This document shows positions 1 to 12,026 of a stretch of 12,026 nucleotides of DNA, in pieces. Every line of letters starts with the position of its first letter. Positions within the stretch are counted from its first letter, which is position 1. Source of the DNA: Bdellovibrionales bacterium (GTDB lineage Bacteria > Bdellovibrionota > Bdellovibrionia > Bdellovibrionales > JAUICD01); the NCBI GenBank assembly GCA_965197425.1, contig CBDANC010000001.1, positions 1-12,026 on the forward strand, in the 5' to 3' direction. The notes beneath the pieces were generated by a model. That model did not search any database. It was not told the origin of the DNA and saw only the letters and a program-made list of their open reading frames with translations. Position numbers and translations under genes: made by a program.

Positions 1-1023
1 AAGTTGATCAATCAATCTACGTAGTTCCGCAATGCCCTGTTGATTCCCTAAAATAATAATAGAATTTGTCCTTTCATCAGGCAGTACAAGTGAAAAAGCA
101 GAACCTTTTTTCTGGTCTGCACCTTTTTGTTGTCTTCTAAATCGAGGAATATTAGCCCGGCCACCCCTAGGTGCTGGCTGTCCTTTGTTAACGATCTTTT
201 CTAATAGGTCAGCAATATCTTTAGCTTTTGCAAATCGGATAGGTATAACAGCCATTTGCTCATTTACACTAGATTCGTCAATCTGTTGAATAATTTTCAT
301 AAAATTATTTATTTTGGAGCCAAAATCTGTAATCACAAGTGTGTTAGTGGGCTCATAACTTTGAAGATTACCTTGTGGTGAAACAGCCTTATTGATGAAC
401 TGACTAACTTGTGCGACATTTGAATGCTTTAGTTGAATGATACGAGTGATCATCTGGTCTGTATCAGGCGTATAAGCACCTGAAAATACTTCACTACTTC
501 CTTTGGCTTTGATAAGAGTTGTGACTTTTAGAAACTTACCCGCAGGAACTACTGTCAGATTATTGATAGCCAGCGCAGATAAAAAAGCTTTATAAGCCTC
601 TGCAACTGTGATGCGAGAGGGTGCAATGATAGTGATTGTCCCATTAACCGCCGAATCTATAATAAAATTCCTTCCTGTCAATTTTGAAATAGCTTCAGTA
701 ACAACCCTTATATTTGCATTTTTAAAGTCGAAGCTCTCTACAAGATCAGGAAAGTTCTCATTAGTAATATCTTCAGGATAGGCATTAGCAAAATCTTGCT
801 TACCCATTTCTTCACTTTTTGCTTTGGAAGAAGATGGTGACTGATCAGGGGTAACACCTCTACCACGTGGTGAAATAATAGGAGTTTCTTTAGAAACCTG
901 TGCAAATACTTTTTGATAGAACCCCGACTCCAAACCATCACTATCAAAATGACTTGCATTAAAAAGATTCAATAATATGATGGCTAATATAAAAACAATA
1001 AATTGAAGAGATTTCATGACCAT
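1..1023 (-). CDS. gspD: Type II secretion system secretin GspD, N-terminal ~341 aa (continues off the left edge)
   Basis: Manual minus-strand translation from ATG 1023 (alternative ATG 1017) is open to position 1. It begins MVMKSLQFIVFILAIILLNLF (signal-like), then secretin N0 FDFKNANIRVVTEAISKLTGRNFIIDSAVNGTITIIAPSRITVAEAYKAFLSALAINNLTVVPAGKFLKV, and N-domain repeats ITRIIQLKH...YEPTNTLVITD, VIPIRFAKAKDIADLL and PDERTNSLIILG. Confidence 0.9.
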   Translation of the reverse strand, partial: MVMKSLQFIVFILAIILLNLFNASHFDSDGLESGFYQKVFAQVSKETPIISPRGRGVTPDQSPSSSKAKSEEMGKQDFANAYPEDITNENFPDLVESFDFKNANIRVVTEAISKLTGRNFIIDSAVNGTITIIAPSRITVAEAYKAFLSALAINNLTVVPAGKFLKVTTLIKAKGSSEVFSGAYTPDTDQMITRIIQLKHSNVAQVSQFINKAVSPQGNLQSYEPTNTLVITDFGSKINNFMKIIQQIDESSVNEQMAVIPIRFAKAKDIADLLEKIVNKGQPAPRGGRANIPRFRRQQKGADQKKGSAFSLVLPDERTNSIIILGNQQGIAELRRLIDQL

Positions 1024-1294
1024 TCTTTGCCTGTTTCATTTAAAAATTATTACTTAGGTTATATATTATAATAAATCTCTTTTGTTTCAGACACGAATGA
1101 GCAAATATATTTACTTTACTTAAGTCTTGAAGTAGAAGGTCAATAACACACTTATCATCAAAAGATAATGAAAAAAAAGAAAGCTCGGAAGATGCATTGT
1201 TTTTTTAGAAAAAACAAAGAAAAGCCTCTAAAGTTACGGTTTGATGCATAAGTTAGAAAAGAAAAATAGGAGATATGGCAGGGAAATAAAATGA

Positions 1295-1381
1295 TTTCCC
1301 TAACATTATGTTAAAAAACGAAGAGAGTCTCCTCCCTAAAAATAACTCTTGCCTTAAGCTGTAAAAGATATTTTAGGGAAA
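1295..1381 (+). repeat. Family A structured repeat, internally deleted copy A1
   Basis: Same leader as the other copies (TTTCCCTAACA-TTA-TGTTAAAAAACGAAGAGAGTCTCC) and a basal stem CCCTAAAAATA/TATTTTAGGG. The interior is a short unrelated loop instead of the GC-rich hairpin. Confidence 0.7.
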
Positions 1382-1396
1382 CGGCAAGGAAATGAT

Positions 1397-3457
1397 ATGG
1401 AACTTTCAACGTCTGTACAGTATTTAAAAGGTGTTGGGCCTCAGCTAGCTAAGATATTAGAAAGAAGAGGTATTAAAACTGTAGAGGATGTTTTACAAAC
1501 CTATCCTCGAAATTATCGAGATTATAGAGCCTATCAATCCATCAGAGATGTAAGAGAAGGAGAAGATGTAAGCCTCGTAGCTTATGTAGTGTCTGTTAAT
1601 TTTTATAGACGTTCTAGAATATGGGATGTGATTTTAAAAGACGACTTTGGGTATATCAGTTGTAAATACTTCAAACAGCCTTACAAAGGATACTTTGATA
1701 GATTCAAGCCAGATATGAAAGTGTGTGTTGAAGGACGAGTCAACCTCTACCAAGGCAAAAAAGAATTTCGTCATCCTGATATTCTCGACTACACAGAAGA
1801 AGAGAACTTTGATCAAATTGTCCCTCTTTATCCAGACATGGATCCCATTAGTCATAAGAAATTATTACGTATAATAGAAACAGCTTTAAAAGCTACACAA
1901 GGAAAAGTTCAAGATCTTCTCCCAGAATGGTTAAAACATAAATATCAACTCATTTCAAAAGAAACAGCATTGCAAAATCTCCATCAGCCTAAAAGTAATA
2001 TGATCAATGCTCTACATGCAGGAAACTCTCAAGCTCAAAGAAGAATTAAATTTGAAGAATTCTTTTGGATGCAACTGACAGCTCTTGCTAGAAAATCCTT
2101 AAGTCCACAAACAAGATCTTTTGCTATGGATAAAGATAGCCAAAGCTTCCAAGAAAAAGCACTCAACATACTGGGCTTATCTTTGACCTCAGCTCAAATG
2201 CGTGTTTTTGAAGACATTCAACAAGACCTAAAACTTGCAAGACCTATGCATCGCTTAATTCAAGGGGATGTAGGAAGTGGTAAAACAGTAGTGGCTTTTT
2301 TGGCTGCTCTTCATACCATTGTTAATGGATATCAGGTTGCTTTTATGGTGCCAACAGAGGTCTTAGCAGAACAACATTATCAAAATGCAAAAAAACTATT
2401 TCCTCAACTTGGCATTGGTATTACATTACTGACAGGACAAATCAAAAAATCAGAAAGATCAGAAAAATTATTACAAATACAAAACTCAGAAGTTCAATTA
2501 TGCATTGGTACTCATGCTTTAATACAAGAGGATGTAAGGTTTAAAAACCTAGCTTTATCTATTATAGATGAACAGCACCGATTTGGCGTCCATCAAAGAA
2601 GACAATTAAAAGTTAAGGGCTCACATTTGTTGGTTATGACAGCTACACCCATCCCTAGGTCACTTTCACTCACATTATACGGAGATTTAGACGTATCTAT
2701 TATAGATCAAATGCCTTCTGGGAGAGTGCCTATCGTGACGAGAATGGTAAAAGAGCATCAAAGAAGAAAAGTTATGGAGTTTATAAGACAACAGTTAAAT
2801 CAAGGTCGCCAGGCATATATTGTTTATCCTCTAGTTGAAGAAAGCGAAAAAAGAGATTTTTTAAAAGATGCTGTCTCAGAATTTGAAAATCTAAAAAAAG
2901 AGTTTCAAGAGTTTTCCTTAGGACTTATACATGGAAAGTTAAAGCCTCTAGAAAAAGAGTCTATTATGAATGCTTTTAAAAAAGCTGAGATTCAAGCTCT
3001 AGTTTCTACAACAGTGATAGAGGTAGGTATGGATGTTTCTAATGTCAATTTGATCCTAATAGAACATGCAGAGTGTTTTGGATTGTCTCAACTTCATCAA
3101 TTAAGAGGAAGAGTAGGTAGAGGACTTTATAAGAGTTATTGTATCTTGATGCTAGGACAAAGGGTATCCAGAGAAAGTATGCAGCGCATTCGTATTTTAG
3201 AACAAACAACTGATGGATTTCAAATAGCTGATAAAGATCTAGAACTTAGAGGGCCTGGTGATGTTTTAGGAACACGTCAATCTGGGATTGATGGTTTTAA
3301 AATGGCAAATATCATAAGAGATAAAGACATTCTCCTACAAGCTCATAGAGCAGCTCACGAGCTTTTTCAAAAAGATCCTCATCTATCTCAACATAGAACA
3401 CTAAAGTCAGAACTTTCAAAGAAAGACGGACGACTTGCCCTTGCCACCTCTGGTTAA
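1397..3457 (+). CDS. recG: ATP-dependent DNA helicase RecG
   Basis: 686 aa. N-terminal LKGVGP and wedge/OB region, RLIQGDVGSGKT (motif I), PTEVLAEQH, IIDEQHRFG, MTATPIPRSL, QLHQLRGRVGRG and DLELRGPGDVLGTRQSG (TRG motif). AAGGA lies upstream of the ATG. Confidence 0.97.
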   Translation: MELSTSVQYLKGVGPQLAKILERRGIKTVEDVLQTYPRNYRDYRAYQSIRDVREGEDVSLVAYVVSVNFYRRSRIWDVILKDDFGYISCKYFKQPYKGYFDRFKPDMKVCVEGRVNLYQGKKEFRHPDILDYTEEENFDQIVPLYPDMDPISHKKLLRIIETALKATQGKVQDLLPEWLKHKYQLISKETALQNLHQPKSNMINALHAGNSQAQRRIKFEEFFWMQLTALARKSLSPQTRSFAMDKDSQSFQEKALNILGLSLTSAQMRVFEDIQQDLKLARPMHRLIQGDVGSGKTVVAFLAALHTIVNGYQVAFMVPTEVLAEQHYQNAKKLFPQLGIGITLLTGQIKKSERSEKLLQIQNSEVQLCIGTHALIQEDVRFKNLALSIIDEQHRFGVHQRRQLKVKGSHLLVMTATPIPRSLSLTLYGDLDVSIIDQMPSGRVPIVTRMVKEHQRRKVMEFIRQQLNQGRQAYIVYPLVEESEKRDFLKDAVSEFENLKKEFQEFSLGLIHGKLKPLEKESIMNAFKKAEIQALVSTTVIEVGMDVSNVNLILIEHAECFGLSQLHQLRGRVGRGLYKSYCILMLGQRVSRESMQRIRILEQTTDGFQIADKDLELRGPGDVLGTRQSGIDGFKMANIIRDKDILLQAHRAAHELFQKDPHLSQHRTLKSELSKKDGRLALATSG

Positions 3458-3534
3458 GTTCTCAATTCATCTCAATTTATAATAAGGAATGGCCTTGTTG
3501 CAAAAAGATTTAAGGAATATGTATGTAAAAACTA

Positions 3535-3739
3535 GAGAATTATGGCAGGTATCTTCCATAGGCCTTAGAAGGCCCCCGTACCTTGTATTTCTGTTATTTT
3601 ATGAAGTTACAATAGAATAAAATAGTTTAAGAAAATTTTATTTCCTGAGCCGCTAGCCTCTCGCCACAACTAGATCAAAAGCCTACTATAGGCTCTATCT
3701 CTATAAATTCAAATTTGATGTTTATGCAACAAACCCATA
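3535..3739 (+). repeat. Family B repeat, copy B1 (diverged)
   Basis: Collinear with the reverse complement of 7321-7480: TATGGCAG...CCCCCG...ATTTTATGAAGTTACAATAGAATAAAA (3596-3622, 23/27 identical to rc of 7391-7417)...TGCAACAAACC. Confidence 0.6.
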
Positions 3740-3770
3740 AGTAGTTATAAAAAACGGTGTTTATGTAGGA

Positions 3771-3915
3771 TTTCCCTAACATATTGTTAATAATGAGAAG
3801 AGTTTCCTTACTAAAAATGAACAATTTTTTTGAGGCAGTCAGCATTTTCTTGAAGATGTAAGTCTTCAGGCTGGCTGCCCAAAAATAGCCAGAGGCTATT
3901 TCATTTTTAGTGGAA
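3771..3915 (+). repeat. Family A structured repeat, copy A2
   Basis: TTTCCCTAACA-TAT-TGTTA leader. Basal stem ACTAAAAATGAA(3810-3821)/TTCATTTTTAGT(3900-3911). Inner hairpin GGCAGTCAGC..TTGAAGAT-GTAA-GTCTTCAG-GCTGGCTGCC (3834-3879). Side hairpin AATAGCC-AGA-GGCTATT. Confidence 0.85.
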
Positions 3916-3970
3916 AAAAGAAGTTTATTTCAAAATGTACTTGATTTTATCATCAATTTAATGTATATAA

Positions 3971-4005
3971 TCCTCATAATTACTTATTGAGGGTTTATCT
4001 TTTTT
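3971..4005 (+). terminator. Possible intrinsic terminator
   Basis: Imperfect stem CCTCATAA/TTATTGAGG followed by TTTATCTTTTTT. Confidence 0.35.
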
Positions 4006-4079
4006 GTGTTGTATAAATATATAATTTCTAAAAAATCCAAATTTAATTCTTCAACTTCTCAAGTTTCAGTATTTTTTAT

Positions 4080-4106
4080 TCATCTTTTTCTTAAAACAGC
4101 CGATAG
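4080..4106 (+). promoter_or_regulatory. Putative sigma28 (FliA) promoter
   Basis: TCAT-N15-GCCGATAG against the consensus TAAA-N15-GCCGATAA, about 90 nt upstream of ATG 4199. Confidence 0.5.
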
Positions 4107-4198
4107 CTAATAAAATCATCTCTATAAGTATACATAATATAGTTTCTAATTAATATTTATGTAAAGTTATTAAACGTTTTATTTTAAGGAGTATTATA

Positions 4199-4546
4199 AT
4201 GAAATCAAAATTTAAAAGAATAACTAACATAGTGTTTTTTTCTTCTCTTTTAGTCTTTCCATTAACCAATAGTTTTGGTGGTGCTACTGTTGATGTTCAT
4301 GGAAAGGTCAAGTCTTATAATGAGGGGGTCTATCAGATTCAGACAGATCAAACCCTTATAAGTGTTGAGTGTTCAAAGCTGCTTCAAGCTTATCAACAAA
4401 TTACCACAGGAAAGCAAGTAGACATAACTATACCTGCATCTGCAATTCTATCTTATAATAGAGTTAATAGAGTGATAAATCCAAACAGAACTCCAGTTAG
4501 AGCTCCTGCTAGTGTTATTCATCAAAAAGTTGGAATAGGAAGGTAA
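4199..4546 (+). CDS. Small secreted hypothetical protein (115 aa)
   Basis: Strong RBS AAGGAG at 4186-4191. Basic-hydrophobic signal peptide MKSKFKRITNIVFFSSLLVFPLTNSFG, followed by a beta-rich mature part. Confidence 0.8.
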   Translation: MKSKFKRITNIVFFSSLLVFPLTNSFGGATVDVHGKVKSYNEGVYQIQTDQTLISVECSKLLQAYQQITTGKQVDITIPASAILSYNRVNRVINPNRTPVRAPASVIHQKVGIGR

Positions 4547-4601
4547 GATGTTTGCTTTCGCATCTTTTGATTTTTGAGTATAACATATACACATGTACTT
4601 T

Positions 4602-4792
4602 ATCACTAAAAATAAACTGGTCTCTCGAGGCGAGCCTCTGACCACTTTTGGGTAGTCAGCCTGAAGACTCACGTCTTCAAGAAAACGCTGACTACCTCAT
4701 TTATCCACATGGGCAATCCTCAAAGAGGCTTGCCATCTGTTTATTTTTTAGGAAGGAGATACTTTTCGTTGTTTAACACCATGTTAAGGAAA
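4602..4792 (-). repeat. Family A structured repeat, copy A3 (inverted, with an extra hairpin)
   Basis: Minus strand reads TTTCCTTAACA-TGG-TGTTAAACAACGAAAAGTATCTCC, stem CTAAAAAATAAAC/GTTTATTTTTAG, extra hairpin ATGGCAAGCCTC-TTT-GAGGATTGCCCAT, and core GGTAGTCAGC..TTGAAGAC-GTGA-GTCTTCAG-GCTGACTACC. Confidence 0.85.
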
Positions 4793-4844
4793 ATTTCATC
4801 CTTTATAAAACCCGTTAGGGCTTAGAATTGGAAGAAAAAATATT

Positions 4845-5000
4845 TTTCCCTAACATGATATAAAAATAAGGAGTATCTACCCTACTCAAAATAAATGAAT
4901 TTTTGAGGCAGCCAGCATTTTATTGACGATGTCAATCGTCAAGCTGGCTGTCCAAAAACAACCAGAGGTTCACCTCGAGAGGTTGATTTATTTTGAGTGA
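4845..5000 (+). repeat. Family A structured repeat, copy A4
   Basis: TTTCCCTAACAT leader. Basal stem ACTCAAAATAAAT(4884-4896)/ATTTATTTTGAGT(4986-4998). Core GGCAGCCAGC..TTGACGAT-GTCA-ATCGTCAA-GCTGGCTGTC (4907-4952). Confidence 0.85.
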
Positions 5001-5032
5001 AATAAGATTAAGGTGCAAAAATTAAAATTACA

Positions 5033-5094
5033 GGTGCCAGACAGTTTGATTCCGGGTACGGTTTGCCAGAGTGCCAGTTTGCCGGATCCCGGAA
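5033..5094. repeat. GC-rich hairpin with short TGCCAG/GTTTG direct repeats
   Basis: TTCCGGG(5050-5056)/CCCGGAA(5088-5094) inverted repeat. TGCCAG at 5035, 5064 and 5072, TGCCGG at 5080. Confidence 0.5.
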
Positions 5095-5121
5095 AAAAGA
5101 GAGCTTGTTATGAACCATATT

Positions 5122-5661
5122 TTAGTTGTGCTTTAGATCTTTATCTTCAAAGATTTTAGATCCTGTGGCCTTGGTTTGTCCTTGATATTTTCCTTTATAA
5201 GGTGCTTGAGAAGGCAGGTCCATTTTACAAAAAACAAGCTGGCAAATACGTCGACCTGCCGTAAGTCTTATAGGTAAATTATTTGCATTATAAAGCTCTA
5301 AAGTAATATGCCCCTTAAATCCAGGGTCAATCCATCCTGCGTTTTGAATAAACAATCCAATACGTCCTATAGAACTTCTACCTTCCACAAAAGACGTAAT
5401 ATAGTTAGGTAATCCAATATATTCCATTGTTGTAGCCAGCAAAAAGGAATGGGGTTCTATTATGATTGATTGTGCTTGCACTTCTTCATATTCACATTTG
5501 TCTGATAAACCAATAACTGATTGATTTTTTTTAAATTTCAAAAAGTGGTTTCCTAAACGGCAATCTAAAGACGCCGACTGCAAAGACTCCTTGCAGAGAG
5601 GCTCAGCAATAAGCTCCTTATTTTCAATCATCTTTTTTATAGTTCTATCAGATAGAATCAT
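5122..5661 (-). CDS. dcd: dCTP deaminase (trimeric dUTPase-fold Dcd, possibly the bifunctional Dcd-dUTPase type)
   Basis: MILSD start, LQSASLDCRLG, VEGRSSIGRIGL, AGWIDPGFKGHITLELYN, RICQLVF and PYKGKYQGQ. Start moved from 5715 to ATG 5661, which has an AAGGGA RBS and the canonical MILSD N-terminus (179 aa). Confidence 0.93.
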   Translation of the reverse strand: MILSDRTIKKMIENKELIAEPLCKESLQSASLDCRLGNHFLKFKKNQSVIGLSDKCEYEEVQAQSIIIEPHSFLLATTMEYIGLPNYITSFVEGRSSIGRIGLFIQNAGWIDPGFKGHITLELYNANNLPIRLTAGRRICQLVFCKMDLPSQAPYKGKYQGQTKATGSKIFEDKDLKHN

Positions 5662-5698
5662 AATATATCCCTTAAGATATGATCTTTTATTTGTTTCA

Positions 5699-5773
5699 TT
5701 GACAATGCATAGCATTATTTATGATAAATGAAATAAAACTTATACATAAACCAAAAAACAATGTAAATACATT
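5699..5773 (+). promoter_or_regulatory. Divergent control region: TTGACA box and two AATG..CATT palindromes
   Basis: TTGACA at 5699-5704 and TATGAT at 5720-5725 (only a 15-nt spacer). AATGC-ATA-GCATT at 5704-5716 and AATGTA-AA-TACATT at 5760-5773. Confidence 0.35.
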
Positions 5774-5793
5774 TTCCCTCAAAAGACAATAAT

Positions 5794-6657
5794 ATGACTC
5801 AAAAAACTATTAACATATATAATGAGCCTATAAAATGGCAAAATAAGATCCACAATGGTGATTGTCTTGATATTATGCGCAGGATGCCAAAGGATTGCGT
5901 TGATCTTATTGTAACATCACCTCCTTACGCAGATGCTCGCCGGCACACTTATGGAGGTATCTCTCCTGATGATTATTCAGATTGGTTTGTTCAAAGAGCA
6001 AAAGAAATGCACCGCATTTTAAAACCTTCTGGATCTTTTGTGTTAAATATCAAAGAAAAAGCTGTAGAAGGAGAAAGGCATCCTTACGTGATTGAACTGA
6101 TTTTAGCACTTAAAAGACAGGTTGGATTTAGATGGGTAGAAGAGTATATATGGCATAAAACAACAGCCGCACCAGGTAAGTGGAAGTACCGCTTCCGTGA
6201 TTCATGGGAAAGGCTACTTCATTTTAGTAAGACCAAAGATTTTAAAATGAGACAGAATGCCGTACGTATACCTATTGGTGGTTGGACAAATGCTCGTTTA
6301 AAAAACATGAGCCAAAATGATAGACGTCGCATGGATTCTGCAACTCAATCAAAAATTGGCCGTCGCATCTCTGCATGGGAGGGTAAAGACTCTGTTTATC
6401 CTTCAAATGTCTTACATAAACCACCTGTCTGTCACAATACAGGGCATAGTGCTGCCTTTCCAGAATGGCTGCCAGAGTTTTTTATCAAACTTTTTACCGA
6501 TAAAGGTGATGTAGTTTTAGATCCTTTTTCTGGCAGTGGAACAACATTTAAAGTTGCATCCAGCTTGCAGCGCATCCCCATTGCCATTGAAATCAACCCT
6601 GATTATATAATCTCTCAAGAGAGGGGAAAAAATGAACAGCTTACAATGGATTTCTGA
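5794..6657 (+). CDS. Beta-class amino DNA methyltransferase (N4-cytosine likely, N6-adenine possible)
   Basis: IHNGDCL, motif IV VDLIVTSPPY near the N-terminus, HRILKPSGS, IWHK, HSAAFPEWL, motif I VVLDPFSGSGTT near the C-terminus, and IEIN. This order (IV before I) defines the beta group. Confidence 0.93.
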   Translation: MTQKTINIYNEPIKWQNKIHNGDCLDIMRRMPKDCVDLIVTSPPYADARRHTYGGISPDDYSDWFVQRAKEMHRILKPSGSFVLNIKEKAVEGERHPYVIELILALKRQVGFRWVEEYIWHKTTAAPGKWKYRFRDSWERLLHFSKTKDFKMRQNAVRIPIGGWTNARLKNMSQNDRRRMDSATQSKIGRRISAWEGKDSVYPSNVLHKPPVCHNTGHSAAFPEWLPEFFIKLFTDKGDVVLDPFSGSGTTFKVASSLQRIPIAIEINPDYIISQERGKNEQLTMDF

Positions 6658-7288
6658 AAAAGATCTCGATAGTGCTATAGACACTCTTTGTAAGAGAACA
6701 AAAAAGGCATTGAAAAATGTCAAAGCCAATCAAGAAAAGAATAAAATTGATCCTTTTCATTCCTTACTAATTACAAACACTTTTGAAATAAAACAAAAAT
6801 CAGATCTATTAGAACTGCAAGATAAAAATTCAGCACTTAGAGGAATGTCTAATGCAATTGGAACTTTTCATCAAAATATTTTGGGCTCTGTTAGTGGGTG
6901 GGAAAATTATGATTCAGGTTATGATCTTGAAAACCTAGAAAAAAAAATATTAGCAGAGATCAAAAATAAGCACAACACAATGAATAAAGATAATAAAGAT
7001 AACGTTTATAATAAGTTAAAAACAGCACTTGAACTAAAAAGAGGTTGTTGGAAAGGTTACCTTGTAGTAATTCTTCCTAAAAAAACTGAAAGCTATAAAG
7101 AATCTCTGAAAAAATTAGGAAGTAAGAAAGAATTGTATAAAATAGATGGTATGTCTTTTTATGAAATGGTTACTGGAGATAAAAATGCATTAAATAATCT
7201 ACTTAATGTATTATGTGATAAACTAAATGTTAATAAGGAAATTACATCATATTGCAAAGAAATAATGACAAGTAATTATAGATCATAA
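6632..7288 (+). CDS. Type II restriction endonuclease, Eco47II-like PD-(D/E)xK family
   Basis: KNKIDPF, NAIGTFHQNILG, GYDL...ILAEIKNKHNTMN and IDGMSFYEMVTGDKNAL match my recollection of the RE_Eco47II family. Overlaps the MTase by 26 nt, with a GAGGGG RBS. Confidence 0.82.
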   Translation: MNSLQWISEKDLDSAIDTLCKRTKKALKNVKANQEKNKIDPFHSLLITNTFEIKQKSDLLELQDKNSALRGMSNAIGTFHQNILGSVSGWENYDSGYDLENLEKKILAEIKNKHNTMNKDNKDNVYNKLKTALELKRGCWKGYLVVILPKKTESYKESLKKLGSKKELYKIDGMSFYEMVTGDKNALNNLLNVLCDKLNVNKEITSYCKEIMTSNYRS

Positions 7289-7320
7289 TAGTGTATGTAT
7301 TAGTAAGGGAAATTTTCATA

Positions 7321-7480
7321 GAGGTTTGTGGCAGAAATTTGAGCTAGCCTTCAGGCCAGAGCATTATGAGGTAGAGGTTCTAAGAAAATGTTTGATTCTA
7401 TAATAAGTTCATAAAATTACTAAAGGTGCAATGCTCGGGGGTGCCTGCTAGCTAGCAAGAACTTCTGCCATAAACCCTTG
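7321..7480 (-). repeat. Family B repeat, copy B2 (long nested palindrome)
   Basis: GGTTTGTGGCAGAA(7323-7336)/TTCTGCCATAAACC(7463-7476) pairs at 13/14. Nested GCTAGC(7343)/GCTAGC(7451) and GAGCATT(7359-7365)/AATGCTC(7430-7436). Inverted homology to 3535-3739. Confidence 0.7.
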
Positions 7481-7549
7481 GTAATAATTTTAAAAACAGA
7501 TAACAGTATTTATCTTTAAAGCACCAAGGTCATAAAACTACTAATAGAG

Positions 7550-8059
7550 GTGGGTATGAAAAAAGTAACAAAAACAAAACAAGTGATTGGCTTAATTTTA
7601 ATTGTAGTTTTTGGCCTTGTAATATGGGATATCTTTATAATTCCTGATAAATCTGATCTATTCTTTAAACTTTGGGCAGATGACGTTCAACTATTACAAG
7701 AAAATAAAAATTTACCTGATGAATTGAAAAATGTAAAAACTGTCTCCATACAACCTCTTAATCAAGAGGCAACAGATCTTATAGAAGGAGGTAGACCTCC
7801 TTTTAATACAAATTCAAAGGGTAATTTGAAATTAGAAGTTTTATTAGATGTTTGGCAAGAAGATGGATTTGAAAACACAGAAAAACAAGAAGGGGTTTAT
7901 ATTCAATATAATCTTATGTCTGACAATGGAAACACAATTTGGGAACTTTCAAGAACTATTTTGCTTCCAGAAAGTTCTTCTTTAATCTCGTCTTGGTTTC
8001 CAGAATTCTTTGAAGAAAGTCCAGACGACACAACAGAAGATAACTTAATGGAAAACTAA
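7550..8059 (+). CDS. Hypothetical protein with an N-terminal membrane anchor and acidic tail
   Basis: 169 aa from GTG 7550 (or ATG 7556 after GAGG). Basic N-terminus, hydrophobic VIGLILIVVFGLVIWDIFII, then a globular remainder. Confidence 0.8.
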   Translation: MGMKKVTKTKQVIGLILIVVFGLVIWDIFIIPDKSDLFFKLWADDVQLLQENKNLPDELKNVKTVSIQPLNQEATDLIEGGRPPFNTNSKGNLKLEVLLDVWQEDGFENTEKQEGVYIQYNLMSDNGNTIWELSRTILLPESSSLISSWFPEFFEESPDDTTEDNLMEN

Positions 8060-8265
8060 AATTTAAGTTCTGCAAGTGGTAAATTACTATTTGTTTTCAT
8101 AGATAAAGCTTGAACCGACTCCACTTTATTATCCAATAACTTAGTAGAAGCCATCTCTTTTGATACGTTTGCTGTATAAGATATGGCAATATTAAAAGCT
8201 ATTCCTACTATAGAAAGGGAGAGAAATCGGAAAACCTTCTCAGTAATATACATGTTTTTATTCAT
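8056..8265 (-). CDS. Small membrane-anchored/secreted protein (69 aa)
   Basis: AAGGAG RBS (8279-8274) 8 nt before ATG 8265. One hydrophobic segment FLSLSIVGIAFNIAISY. A sigma54-type promoter lies upstream. Its stop overlaps the convergent gene's stop by 4 nt. Confidence 0.7.
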   Translation of the reverse strand: MNKNMYITEKVFRFLSLSIVGIAFNIAISYTANVSKEMASTKLLDNKVESVQALSMKTNSNLPLAELKF

Positions 8266-8313
8266 GATACACGCTCCTTGAATTAACGTTCTACTTCAAT
8301 ATGCTTTATTACT

Positions 8314-8330
8314 AGCAAGTTCCTTGCCAA
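8314..8330 (-). promoter_or_regulatory. Sigma54 (-24/-12) promoter
   Basis: Minus strand TTGGCAAGGAACTTGCT has GG-N10-GC spacing and closely matches TGGCAC-N5-TTGCW. It lies ~50 nt upstream of ATG 8265. Confidence 0.7.
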
Positions 8331-8640
8331 CTTGAATAACTCTTAAGATACTTGCCAAAACCTGTTTTATTTCTATTTTATATTTATTTTTACAATATAT
8401 TATTCTCTAAAAGAGACATTTTCTGTAAAAATACTGACGGATTTTGTCGTTACACTTCACTAAAAACCCTTGCGCTTAATCTTCTTATTAAGTGAACTTT
8501 GTTGTCCAAGAAATTAACAACCTTAGTTTTGTGCGAAAATAAGACATTTTCCCTAATGTTATTTAAGAGTTTAACCGAAGAACTACTATAAGATTCATAT
8601 ATCAAAAACAAACAAAAAAGAATGTTAGGGATTTAAGGCT

Positions 8641-11094
8641 TTGAAGAAGTTTCGATATTCTAAGATTCATAATAAGCTAAAAAAAAATGTATTTCTTTTT
8701 TTTAGAAATACAAATCCTACATATTTAAACATCCTATACATTTTAACCGCTTTTATCCCTATCTTTCTACTTTCTTTTCAAAATTGTAGAACAACCGATA
8801 TAGATATATCATCAGGAGACTCAAACTCTGCAGAAGTCACCTATAAAACAGGACAAATCATTGAAATAGACTCTACAGATGGTTCCGCTAAAGAAGACCG
8901 TCTCCTTCCGGCTGATACAGATATAAAACTACAATTCCTCAATGCTGATCCAGTTTCCGACAATTACAAGTGGTCGATCCAAAGAGGCTTTGATCCTATC
9001 GTAACAACCTCAACAACAGCAGATAAATATCAAACAAAGTTTTCCTCAGGATTGGGGGCTTATGATGTATCTGCCAACGCCTATCAATCAAATGCCTTTA
9101 AAACAAGAGCTAGTAAAAGATTTGTAGTTGGAGATTCTTGCTCACTCAATGATATTTTAGAAATAGAACTCTCATCAGATAGCGCAGCTTCTTTCAAAGC
9201 TGGTGCATCCGACGCTATTACATTTGCCTTGAAAGATAGCACAAACTTCTCTTCTATCCAATGGAAAGCTAAACTTCCTTCAGGAGAAACTGCAACAAAC
9301 GAGACAGATGTAGATACATTAGAAATAGACCTCTCTGAAGAAAGCTCTGGAACATTGCTAATTGAAGTTTCTGCTGTAAGCTCTGATGCTGAAAAGGCTG
9401 GATGTCTAACTTATAGAAAAAAAGAAGTCACTATCTCTTCAAACCTAATACCTTATTTCAATCCATTAAATTTCACAGATGGTACAAATAACATACCCGT
9501 AATATTAGAAAACAATCACATTTATAAATATGAAAGATCAGATACAACTCGTTTTGTACAAATAGAAGTGCTTAATGCAGATACTTGCCAATATCGAGCT
9601 AATAATAGTAGTAAAGTTAATTTTAATTGTAGTGGAGAGATGATAGAAATCCCTGCAAGCTCAGGTACAGATTGTATAAAAGGAACAATCACTCTTTTTG
9701 CATCTAACAGTCAAGGTCAATCTTCTTTACAAATTTATTATTATTATTGCGAAGAAGATAGTGATTATTGCTACTTTGGACCTATTAATGAGAGAGTTGG
9801 ATCACATGTATGTCCAGTCGCAAGTGAAGGTGAACAAGGATCTCAAGAATCCAGAAGTGAGTTTGAATTTGATCCAGTGGCTACAACTACAACTACAACG
9901 CCATTAGTCACAGCTACATCAGTTACAACTCCTTCAGTTACAACTCCTTCAGTTACACAACCAACTACAAGTTCTCCTCCAGTTAATGGAGTCTGTAATA
10001 ATACTGTTAGAAATGGATGCTCTAAAGGAACCGCAAATGACAATGCTATCGCAGATACAAGCACTCTTTACAAATGGCACTGTGTAGGTTCAAACGGTGG
10101 CAACACTGTTACAAATTGTCAATCAGTTACAACTCCTTCAGTTACACAACCAACTACAAGTTCTCCTCCAGTTAATGGAGTCTGTAATAATGCTGTTAGA
10201 AATGGATGCTCTAAAGGAACCGCAAATGACAATGCTATCGCAGATACAAGCACTCTTTACAAATGGCACTGTGTAGGTTCAAACGGTGGCAACACTGTTA
10301 CAAATTGTCAAAAAACAAAATCAGTTAATGGAGTCTGTAATAATGCTGTTAGAAATGGTTGCTCCACTGGAACTGCAAACTCCAATGCCATAGCAGACAC
10401 AAACACTCTTTACAAATGGCACTGTGTAGGTTCAGACGGAGGCAATACTGCTACAAATTGTCAAAAAGCAAAATCCACAACAGAAAATGGTCAGTGTAAT
10501 AATAATGTGAAATATGATTGTTCATCATCAACAGCAGCTACTAATAAAACTGCTAGTGGTGGGTTTGATCGTTGGCATTGCCCAGGATCTGGCACACCTA
10601 CCGGCAACACTGTTACAAATTGTCAAAAAGCAATACCTAATTGTTCTACTTCTACTTCATGTAATAGCAGTAACCCTACAAACTCAACGTGTCGAGTAGA
10701 CAGTAATGGATGTTATAGCTGGTCTTGTGACATAGGGTACTCAAAAAGTGGCAATTCATGTGTTCCCCCTTCTCCATCAAGCTGTACTTGTAACAACTCT
10801 GTAGTTAATGGATGTGGCAACACTTGCAGTGCCAGCCAAACACCAAGTGATACTCCAACCCTTCATCGGTGGACTTGGACTACTAAAAGTGGTTACACAT
10901 CATCAGACACTTGTAGTAGCTCATGTCTAAGTAGGCAGTACACTTCATCAAGTGCATGCAATAGTGGCAAACCAGCATATCAAACCTGTCAACAGCAAAC
11001 TAATGGATGTTATCAAAGAACAGGCTCGTGTCCAAGTGGGCAGTATACTTCATCAAGCGCATGCAACAGTGGCAAACCAGCATATCAAACCTAG
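8641..11094 (+). CDS. Large Cys-rich repeat surface lipoprotein, 5' part (817 aa, ended by an insertion-created TAG)
   Basis: TTG start (uncertain). Hydrophobic ILYILTAFIPIFLLSFQNC with Cys49 as the probable lipid-anchored residue. Beta-rich N-terminal region, Thr/Ser/Pro linker, then tandem Cys modules. Confidence 0.85.
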   Translation: MKKFRYSKIHNKLKKNVFLFFRNTNPTYLNILYILTAFIPIFLLSFQNCRTTDIDISSGDSNSAEVTYKTGQIIEIDSTDGSAKEDRLLPADTDIKLQFLNADPVSDNYKWSIQRGFDPIVTTSTTADKYQTKFSSGLGAYDVSANAYQSNAFKTRASKRFVVGDSCSLNDILEIELSSDSAASFKAGASDAITFALKDSTNFSSIQWKAKLPSGETATNETDVDTLEIDLSEESSGTLLIEVSAVSSDAEKAGCLTYRKKEVTISSNLIPYFNPLNFTDGTNNIPVILENNHIYKYERSDTTRFVQIEVLNADTCQYRANNSSKVNFNCSGEMIEIPASSGTDCIKGTITLFASNSQGQSSLQIYYYYCEEDSDYCYFGPINERVGSHVCPVASEGEQGSQESRSEFEFDPVATTTTTTPLVTATSVTTPSVTTPSVTQPTTSSPPVNGVCNNTVRNGCSKGTANDNAIADTSTLYKWHCVGSNGGNTVTNCQSVTTPSVTQPTTSSPPVNGVCNNAVRNGCSKGTANDNAIADTSTLYKWHCVGSNGGNTVTNCQKTKSVNGVCNNAVRNGCSTGTANSNAIADTNTLYKWHCVGSDGGNTATNCQKAKSTTENGQCNNNVKYDCSSSTAATNKTASGGFDRWHCPGSGTPTGNTVTNCQKAIPNCSTSTSCNSSNPTNSTCRVDSNGCYSWSCDIGYSKSGNSCVPPSPSSCTCNNSVVNGCGNTCSASQTPSDTPTLHRWTWTTKSGYTSSDTCSSSCLSRQYTSSSACNSGKPAYQTCQQQTNGCYQRTGSCPSGQYTSSSACNSGKPAYQT
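9919..10465 (+). repeat. Coding tandem repeats: 15-bp SVTTP units and a 189-bp duplication
   Basis: TCAGTTACAACTCCT at 9919 and 9934. 9934-10122 versus 10123-10311 differ at one base (ACT/GCT). A third diverged NGVCNN...WHCVGSxGG...NCQ module starts at ~10322. Confidence 0.9.
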
Positions 11095-11170
11095 TCAACA
11101 GCAAACTAATGGATGTTATCAAAGGACAGGCTCTTGTCCAAGTGGACAGTATACTTCATCAAGCGCATGT
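10936..11170 (+). repeat. Coding tandem repeat, 105-bp unit (QYTSSSACNSGKPAYQTCQQQTNGCYQRTGSCPSG)
   Basis: Units start at 10936, 11041 and 11147 (partial). The second unit is 106 bp because of an extra A at 11093. Confidence 0.9.
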
Positions 11171-12026
11171 AACTCTGCGAATCCTAATAACTCAACATGT
11201 AGCTCACAAGGCAATGGATGTTATGCTTGGACATGTGATACTGATTATCGCAAAAGTGTTAATAATTGTGTACTCTGTACAACTTCTAATTCATGTGATA
11301 ACAGTAAACCAGCAAACTCTACTTGTAGCACAGATAGTAATGGATGTTATAGCTGGTCTTGTAACAGCGGTTACCGAAAAAGTGGTAATAGCTGCGTAGC
11401 TTGTACAACTTCCAGTTCATGTGATAGCAGTAAACCGACAAACTCAACATGTAGTGCAGATAGTAACGCATGTTATAGCTGGGCTTGTAACACAGGTTAC
11501 CAAAGAAGTGGTAATTCATGTGTCCGAGCACCAGGACCAGTTTGTGGTACAAATCGAAACACTTGTAACCCCGGTACTGCTAATGACTCAGCTGTTACTG
11601 ATACCACAAGTACATATAAATGGAGATGTTCTCATAATGGACAAAGTATAAATACCTGCTTCTCCTGCCAATCTGGCTACAGAAAGAGTGGTAATAGCTG
11701 TCTAGCCTGTACAACTTTTAGTTCATGTGACAGGTCTAATCCTAGTAACTCAACATGTAGTGCTGATAGTAATGGATGTTATAGCTGGGCTTGTAATAGT
11801 GGCTATACACAAAGTAGTAACTCATGTGTCCGAACACAAGGACCAGTTTGTGGTACAAATCGAAACACTTGTAACCCCGGTACTGCTAATGACTCAGCTG
11901 TTACTGATACCACAAGTACATATAAATGGAGATGTTCTCATAATGGACAAAGTATAAATACCTGCTTCTCCTGCCAATCTGGCTACAGAAAGAGTGGTAA
12001 TAGCTGTCTAGCCTGTACAACTTTTA
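11096..12026 (+). pseudogene. Frameshifted continuation of the Cys-rich lipoprotein (310 open codons, runs off the window)
   Basis: The frame from CAA 11096 has no stop to the window end: QQQTNGCYQRTGSCPSGQYTSSSACNSANPNNSTCSSQGNGCYAWTCDTDYRKSVNNCVLCTTSNSCDNSKPANSTC...CYSWSCNSGYRKSGNSCV...GPVCGTNRNTCNPGTANDSAVTDTTSTYKWRCSHNG... Confidence 0.85.
11415..12026 (+). repeat. Coding tandem repeat, 306-bp (102 aa) unit
   Basis: 11415-11720 versus 11721-12026. The distal ~190 bp (AGGACCAGTTTGTGG...ACAACTTTTA) reads identical by eye, while the proximal part has diverged. Confidence 0.9.

Follow-up and report, generated by a model that had tools for sequence, protein, structure and literature searches.

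A prolific, structured mobile repeat of one Bdellovibrionales genus, with insertion scars that point to target-primed copying

Family A is a real, new and highly prolific mobile repeat of about 150 nt, of which one genus carries hundreds of copies, and by kind it belongs among the small non-autonomous structured repeats. Based on its junctions, it probably spreads by target-primed copying, from a template of either RNA or single-stranded DNA. The copies were analyzed in a window of 12,026 nt (the whole stretch of DNA analyzed; assembly GCA_965197425.1, contig CBDANC010000001.1, positions 1 to 12,026, forward strand) and in related genomes, chiefly G004 and G002, both of genus g2, a sister genus in the same family as the window's assembly (G000).

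Copies of family A in the window

The preliminary description reported three full copies in the window, A2, A3, and A4, and their coordinates, stems, GTAA, GTGA and GTCA loops and element-strand G.T pairs were all found again. Additionally, a covariance model detected a fourth, internally deleted copy, A1 (1295–1385, plus strand; E 5e-7), which retains the head and basal stem and folds no better than its shuffles. The orthologous G004 site has A1 followed by another full copy. A decayed remnant of a leader module, module B, lies 5′ of A1 (1190–1294, plus strand) and has 11 partial matches in G004, none covering more than 60% of its length.

A2 (3771–3918, plus strand) is a full copy whose G004 site is empty. 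Its head, TTTCCYTAACAT, occupies 3771–3782, and its basal stem pairs 3810–3821 with 3900–3911. The long stem has a bulged A, a 6-nt bulge and a GTAA loop, the small hairpin has an AGA loop, and the 3′ tail runs into a host A-run. The 5′ leader of A2 (3755–3770, plus strand) also occurs before A copies at two unrelated G004 loci. A MITE-like insert, separate from family A, lies at 3482–3745 (plus strand) within a block absent from G004; its inverted ends (3491–3502 and 3725–3736) resemble those of the genome's IS5-family element, and its 9-bp target duplication is decayed. This IS5/IS903-like MITE has 76 matches in G004, 25 of them over 60% of its length.

A3 (4598–4792, minus strand) is a full copy whose small hairpin contains one 14-nt expansion and which carries an extra hairpin at about 4697–4740 (six matches in G004). 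The A3 head joins a four-helix-bundle (TIGR02436) cassette at the position expected for the cassette's start codon; the ribosome-binding part of the cassette leader is at 4793–4823 (minus strand), and the gene itself is missing. A4 (4824–5007, plus strand; core 4845–5000) has a 21-nt leader and a 7-nt tail and lies within the cassette leader, replacing approximately 12 target bases. The remaining leader and a heptamer-repeat tract (about 5030–5093) span 5008–5107 (minus strand); this stretch holds the right edge of the block missing from G004, just beyond the stop codon of dCTP deaminase. In the fragmented contigs assembled from four runs, 4823 is joined to 5008 via 12 other letters, at either the same locus or a paralogue. 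A3 and A4 are pieces of a single composite insert within the leader of a four-helix-bundle cassette.

Several neighboring features of the window were also recorded. An N4/N6 methyltransferase and an Eco47II-family endonuclease form a type II restriction-modification pair at 5794–7288, and G004 has both. A second structured repeat, related to the MITE at 3482–3745 but on the other strand, lies at about 7290–7510 (24 matches in G004). An imperfect inverted repeat at 8440–8650, containing words that resemble the A head, precedes the cysteine-rich repeat protein gene and recurs before the C11 paralogues and twice in G004. That gene (8641 onward) is split into two frames by a one-base insertion at 11092 relative to G004, which is either a real frameshift or an assembly error.

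Family A folds into a conserved three-way junction

In family A, an unpaired head beginning TTTCCYTAACAT precedes a three-way junction formed by a basal stem, a long stem interrupted by a single bulged A and by a larger one-sided bulge, and a small CC-AGA-GG hairpin that the preliminary description had omitted. RNA folding of A2, A3, and A4 gave z scores of −5.5, −4.3 and −6.9, with none of 200 shuffles as good, and A2 folded as DNA gave −6.4. No element match came near any gathering score in Rfam (best E 0.086, an unrelated microRNA model).

Compensatory changes, previously proposed from the window copies, were borne out in an alignment of 77 dereplicated copies (A2 of the window, 63 of 74 G004 representatives with the 11 longer ones omitted, and 13 copies from G002). 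In this alignment, 96.3% of cells are paired, and both sides have changed in 29 of 38 pairs; one pair was offset by a column and counted as unpaired. This level of pairing was reached by none of 500 shuffles, slid controls were 33–50% paired, and the RNAalifold covariation term was −8.3 kcal/mol. The single bulged A of the long stem is near-invariant across the 77 copies, whereas the 6-nt bulge previously described as conserved varies in length by a few bases.

Wobbles read on the element plus strand are G.U in 67 cases versus A.C in 36, which together with the paired-cell covariation supports the earlier proposal of selection on single-stranded structure. Of 158 apical loop calls, 84 are GNNA (66 GNRA and 18 GNYA). 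The plus strand is the better folder in 118 of 162 cases as RNA and in 125 of 162 as DNA. Variants of the three helices reassort freely among copies. Nearest-neighbor copies differ by 22 one-sided and no two-sided changes, indicating that resident copies decay; the spreading lineages carry compensated stems while the residents decay. Arm-to-arm copying as a source of the covariation is disfavored because the bulges persist and recent changes are one-sided. Since the copies are related, both the covariation counts and the junction counts given below overstate the number of independent events.

Family A marks contaminant contigs and was found in a single genus

In G000, family A copies are confined to contigs C1, C4, and C11. 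The RecG of the window is 94% identical to that of G004, and G000 holds a second recG on C15 (55%) as well as a second gspD and dcd on C12. Moreover, alignments to G004 cover 87% of C1, 64% of C4 and 71% of C11, compared with 13–21% of the large contigs. The duplicated genes and the alignment indicate that C1, C4, and C11 are contaminants from a g2 organism, and the family A repeat marks these three contigs.

Exact head patterns numbered 883 in G002, 246 in G004, nine in G000, one in G003 and none in G001, and the reversed control gave none. Among 151 genomes from the order, the covariance model matched three (G000, G002, and G004), and among 151 from the phylum it matched one (G000); outside G000 and g2, family A was absent from every other genus searched with this model. 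In G004 (2.8 of 2.94 Mb covered), 284 full-length copies and 464 matches of at least 25 bits were found, and family A makes up 2.3% of the sequence covered. Of the 279 anchored G004 copies, 223 are distinct, and one sequence alone recurs more than 20 kb apart.

Pattern matches in viral and metagenome sequences were not confirmed by the covariance model (best E 0.074), and BLAST searches of phages and plasmids yielded four short chance matches and none, respectively. We found no description of family A or of its scar pattern in the open-access literature, and term searches of PMC4679880 and PMC2267715 turned up nothing that bears on it.

Family A is mobile, and its sites differ between strains

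The preliminary description had offered two readings, a non-autonomous mobile element and a structured ncRNA. Empty orthologous sites, hundreds of polymorphic copies and the lack of an Rfam match favor the former; the reading as an ncRNA gene gained no direct support: no RNA run was listed that contains the sequence, and the copies are spread over all gene contexts. The comparison of filled and empty sites proposed at that time showed that the A2 and A3/A4 blocks are missing from G004: the A2 block measures 488 nt versus 65 nt in G004, and the A3/A4 block 544 versus 180 nt. Three of six comparable sites are empty, and G004 has an additional copy upstream of recG. An orthologous array on C11 precedes a gene that we take to be ribosomal-protein-like; here a duplicated host segment is common to both strains, but the A variants differ. 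The same host duplication with different variants indicates that copies were overwritten or re-inserted.

Family A occurs in all four gene contexts and in both orientations, and in 24 of 82 cases its 3′ end is no more than 30 nt from a convergent stop. Copies split 77:50 between replication strands versus 800:604 for genes, and the GC skew of G004 is irregular.

The junctions have a fixed 3′ end and variable scars

On the 5′ side, the head is sharp, and the leaders upstream are variable and A-rich, with some common to several loci. The 3′ end is TTT(T/G)AG(T/G)GA followed by a soft AACAG tail. No fixed target duplication was found: among lengths of 5–10 nt, none was present in more than three of 228 copies, and direct flank repeats showed a weak excess at 2–4 nt only, in A-rich flanks. 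Direct matches of at least 20 nt across copies were found in 42 of 228 cases versus 3 of 228 in the control, including tandem arrays and matches composed of element pieces. In 52 filled/empty pairs, either 0–22 target bases are lost or about 20–90 nt are duplicated, including tRNA ends. The tail is largely missing from the empty alleles and overlaps them by 1–3 bases. Among 20 in-register junctions (eight out-of-register pairs were left out), 3′ microhomology of at least 1 nt was present in 15 and of at least 2 nt in 10, versus 22% and 8% expected.

Trailing 3′ fragments occur after 41 of 228 copies, compared with 1 of 228 on the other strand, and 36 of 39 such fragments differ from the end of the copy that they follow. 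An orphan 5′ part lies upstream in 16 of 34 cases, and 6 of 13 tested fragments match it; about half of the trailing fragments derive from older copies that were hit near the small hairpin, some bases being lost. The remaining fragments have no 5′ partner upstream. In G002, whose junctions come from about 13 short loci and pattern counts, arrays consist of a full copy followed by successively shorter 3′ fragments, and heads are also fused to heptamer tracts. Furthermore, an inverted 3′ end exactly follows the head word TAACAT in 98 of the 100 G002 junctions listed and in none of G004. This TAACAT junction, present at 104 G002 sites (e.g., L011:1787–1870), is nearly a single variant and may mark a nick site or one amplified event.

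At 4 of 37 tRNA genes, a family A 3′ end lies 3–7 nt beyond the tRNA 3′ end, in antisense. At one G004 locus (L133:3535–4330), a tRNA-Arg is followed by several A copies separated by duplicates of its 3′ part. Truncation points had been predicted to be enriched in loops, and this prediction failed (21 of 67 unpaired); the predicted adenine-biased mutation pattern was likewise lacking among the copies. A promoter scan gave 14 sites versus 15.1 expected.

Family A is associated with module B and four-helix-bundle cassettes

Module B, likewise structured and about 230 nt long, has conserved words that flank a variable hairpin (G004, L094:17760–17975), and it lies directly 5′ of an A head in 33 of 41 G004 copies. 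It matched nothing in Rfam; its resemblances to ribozymes or to group I sequences are presumptive.

TIGR02436 four-helix-bundle genes number 19 in G004, 14 in G002, 19 in G000 and none in G001 or G003. These genes (TIGR02436/PF05635) are Avd-like by homology, according to PMC10053308. Family A lies within 400 nt of 7 of 12 intact four-helix-bundle genes of G004 versus 17% of all ORFs, and it also interrupts such genes. In G002, it lies downstream on the same strand at all four of the four-helix-bundle loci examined (of 14). This proximity may stem in part from the common use of harmless intergenic sites. Most of the 19 cassette matches of G000 are on its main contigs, which have no A copy.

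On G000 contigs C12–C15 (L202, L205, L208, and L211), four-helix-bundle genes carry 7- and 8-mer tracts, and the cassettes sit immediately behind stop codons or the end of a tRNA, next to a different structured repeat. G000, which carries these cassettes, has no RVT_1 or Y1 match. The cassettes and family A are alike in their host genomes, gene-end landing places, fused composites and lack of a recognized mobilizing enzyme; they differ in that family A has neither a gene nor heptamers of its own.

No partner enzyme was found beside the copies

RAYT/TnpA and TnpB had been suggested as partners, and profile searches of the carrier genomes found none beside the copies. For Y1, there was no match in G002 and one transposase in G004, the ends of which are unlike A. 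For Y2, the carriers gave no match, in a search whose control also matched nowhere. Reverse transcriptase (RVT_1) had no match in G002 (90% complete) or G000, even at E 10. G004 has three reverse transcriptase (RT) matches, two group II intron-like and one of retron type, and the flanks compared contain no A-like sequence apart from one neighboring copy. This copy is about 440 nt downstream of the retron-type RT, beside a tRNA, and the region upstream of the RT is unlike A. The G004 frame at L200:1282–3054 encodes a 590-aa one-frame fusion of a retron St85-type effector domain and an RT.

The carriers contain no IS110 recombinase and no TnpB, the sole PF07282 matches being in frames of 1343 and 1365 aa. 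GIY-YIG matched one frame of 612–653 aa per genome without a tie to family A, and rve had no match in G002. Each carrier has two tyrosine recombinases, and the flanks of those in G004 are unlike A. DDE_Tnp_1 had 3 matches in G002 and 54 in G004; the IS1634 type is the sole DDE kind common to both carriers, and the ends of two IS1634-type elements resemble A at the null level only. No long ORF is enclosed by A ends.

Rpn (YhgA-like) genes are expanded in both carriers, with 16 matches in G002 and 19 in G004, and are without consistent A flanking; G001 has 16 Rpn matches yet no family A copy. Finally, 243 of 455 soluble candidate proteins specific to G004 were scanned against Pfam, which revealed no new polymerase, HUH or RT-like protein. 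As to the general load of mobile genes, G004 has 27 IS30, 23 IS1634, 14 IS256-like and 14 IS5 frames and four Cas1-family genes; G002 has almost no insertion sequences, although its A heads outnumber those of G004 more than threefold.

Target-primed copying as the probable route of spread

A fixed 3′ end with microhomology at the joint, a wandering second junction and mixed templates argue for primed synthesis with template switching, and not for a DDE, HUH or site-specific recombinase. Primed synthesis with template switching is established for non-LTR retroelements. In such target-primed copying, a free chromosomal 3′ end would pair with 1–3 bases of the element tail and would then be elongated by copying a folded plus-strand template, which is most likely element RNA; judging from the junctions, synthesis would begin at the element 3′ end. 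The polymerase would often drop off and restart on another template, giving rise to serial 3′ fragments and to fusions with module B, heptamer tracts and four-helix-bundle sequence. Re-annealing of the new strand to the target would then set the second junction, resulting in a deletion or a duplication. Stems would stay paired because only well-folded copies would be recognized and copied. The head, TTTCCYTAACAT, is invariant and probably serves as a site of protein binding or nicking; among possible partners, the four-helix-bundle cassette is the most promising lead. Weighing against target-primed copying, nested insertion explains about half of the trailing fragments, and many of the long duplications are in tandem arrays and possibly arose by later recombination.

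As to the template, folded plus-strand RNA, copied by an enzyme supplied from elsewhere, is a plausible but tentative choice that falls somewhat short of probable. The excess of G.U over A.C wobbles and of GNRA over GNYA loops is consistent with RNA, as are the sense-strand placement with the four-helix-bundle gene at all four G002 loci examined and the antisense 3′ ends just past the 3′ end of four tRNA genes. However, G002 has no RVT_1 match despite its 883 heads, the RTs of G004 are unlinked to family A, truncations are not enriched in loops, and adenine bias is lacking. Moreover, the plus strand folds better as DNA too, and a 3-nt AGA loop and the 21% of GNNA loops that are not GNRA suit DNA as well.

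Target-primed copy-in from single-stranded DNA, in which a DNA polymerase would switch from a nick or a stalled fork onto a folded copy and back, ranks slightly below RNA as a tentative choice. Nicks might be made by the expanded Rpn nucleases or by a factor binding the head motif; RpnA generates 3′-OH ends able to prime template switching (PMC5350276). Every junction observation fits this template equally, as do the missing RT of G002, the AGA triloop and the GNNA loops. The Rpn expansion in both carriers agrees with it, but G001 has as many Rpn matches as G002 and zero copies, and Rpn genes are without consistent A flanks. The TAACAT junction of G002 is as expected of a nick site; however, it is nearly one variant, perhaps a single amplified event, and G004 has none. 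Furthermore, the abundant single-stranded template has no known source, and the replication-strand bias of the copies is not clear when set against that of genes.

An HUH-enzyme partner (IS200/IS605 TnpA, RAYT or IS91-type), with movement as single-stranded DNA as in REPINs, is improbable. Imperfect hairpins, the conserved bulged base, tandem arrays and self-insertion, together with the one Y1 gene of G004, are features that it would share; nevertheless, that gene lacks A-like ends, G002 has no Y1 match, and no Y2 match was obtained in the search whose control also failed to match. Additionally, the empty alleles have no constant target word, and the insertions are imprecise.

We give as little credence to a MITE of a DDE transposase of IS1634 type, with variable junctions arising by later decay. 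The head TTTCCYTAA is similar to the reverse-complemented tail, most clearly in the GGG variant, with agreement at about 8 of 12 bases between the head and the reversed tail; this inverted similarity is weak, and DDE_Tnp_1 is present in both carriers. In contrast, a fixed duplication is absent, the IS1634 ends are not A-like above the null, and the conserved internal pairing, bulges and loops are not needed by such a MITE. The bona fide MITE beside A2 retains its 9-bp duplication.

Finally, family A is very unlikely to be a host regulatory RNA or a terminator or stabilizer under host selection, with spread as a side effect. The strong covariation, the 3′ ends close to convergent stops and a TAnnnT word inside the head would suit such a role, but the copies occupy all four gene contexts in both orientations, interrupt four-helix-bundle genes and sit at strain-specific sites, and the one-sided changes between recent neighbors point to resident decay.

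Other candidates were rejected: a group II intron derivative (no Domain V/VI and no similarity to the resident G004 intron), a retron msr-msd (the region upstream of the G004 retron-type RT is unlike A), an IS110- or TnpB-associated element (neither enzyme was found in the carriers), and an attC or dif likeness of the head, whose spacing and layout do not fit. IS91-type elements have a constant target tetranucleotide and insert without duplication or loss, a pattern that family A does not follow.

Comparison with known systems

Among the systems compared, non-LTR retroposons and SINEs move by target-primed reverse transcription with template jumping. Family A shares with them a fixed 3′ end, microhomology priming, variable duplication or loss and multi-template fusions; it differs in being bacterial, in lacking a poly(A) tail, in its mostly intact heads and in having no partner RT found. 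Prokaryotic MITE-class repeats (including Rickettsia palindromic elements, BOX, and ERIC; reviewed in PMC10969869) are likewise non-coding, structured and multicopy units of about 150 nt that are lineage-restricted and have no internal transposase. Unlike these repeats, family A has neither a fixed target duplication nor matching transposase ends; its three-way fold is strand-asymmetric, its leaders vary, and 3′ fragments occur in series.

REP/REPIN/TIRtron sequences, with their RAYT/TIRYT Y1 enzymes, have long imperfect hairpins, clustered arrays and selection on single-strand structure in common with family A (PMC3733652). In contrast to them, family A has no GTAG or CGTC end tag, and its junctions are imprecise; no Y1 gene is flanked by copies, and G002 has no Y1. 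Restriction-modification insertions with a long target duplication (PMC2853133) share the long variable duplications and the absence of other mobile-element genes. Their cargo there consists of single-copy kilobase gene clusters, whereas family A is a structured unit of 150 nt in hundreds of copies that also deletes target sequence.

Implications

How small structured repeats of bacteria spread when they have no cognate transposase has long been an open question. With hundreds of junctions, empty and filled strains, and scars unlike those of DDE or HUH enzymes, this question becomes testable in family A. The effects on the host include disrupted genes and the duplication of tRNA and gene ends. 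Should the template be RNA, family A would be a bacterial counterpart of SINEs; should it be DNA, the repeat would reveal a polymerase-driven copy-in route. More speculatively, and in our estimate doubtfully, family A could be a SINE-like parasite of the machinery that moves four-helix-bundle/heptamer cassettes by 3′-primed synthesis at chromosomal nicks from folded single-stranded templates, with frequent switching between templates and without a recognizable RT or transposase. Were this so, the up to 883 heads per genome would record that chemistry hundreds of times.
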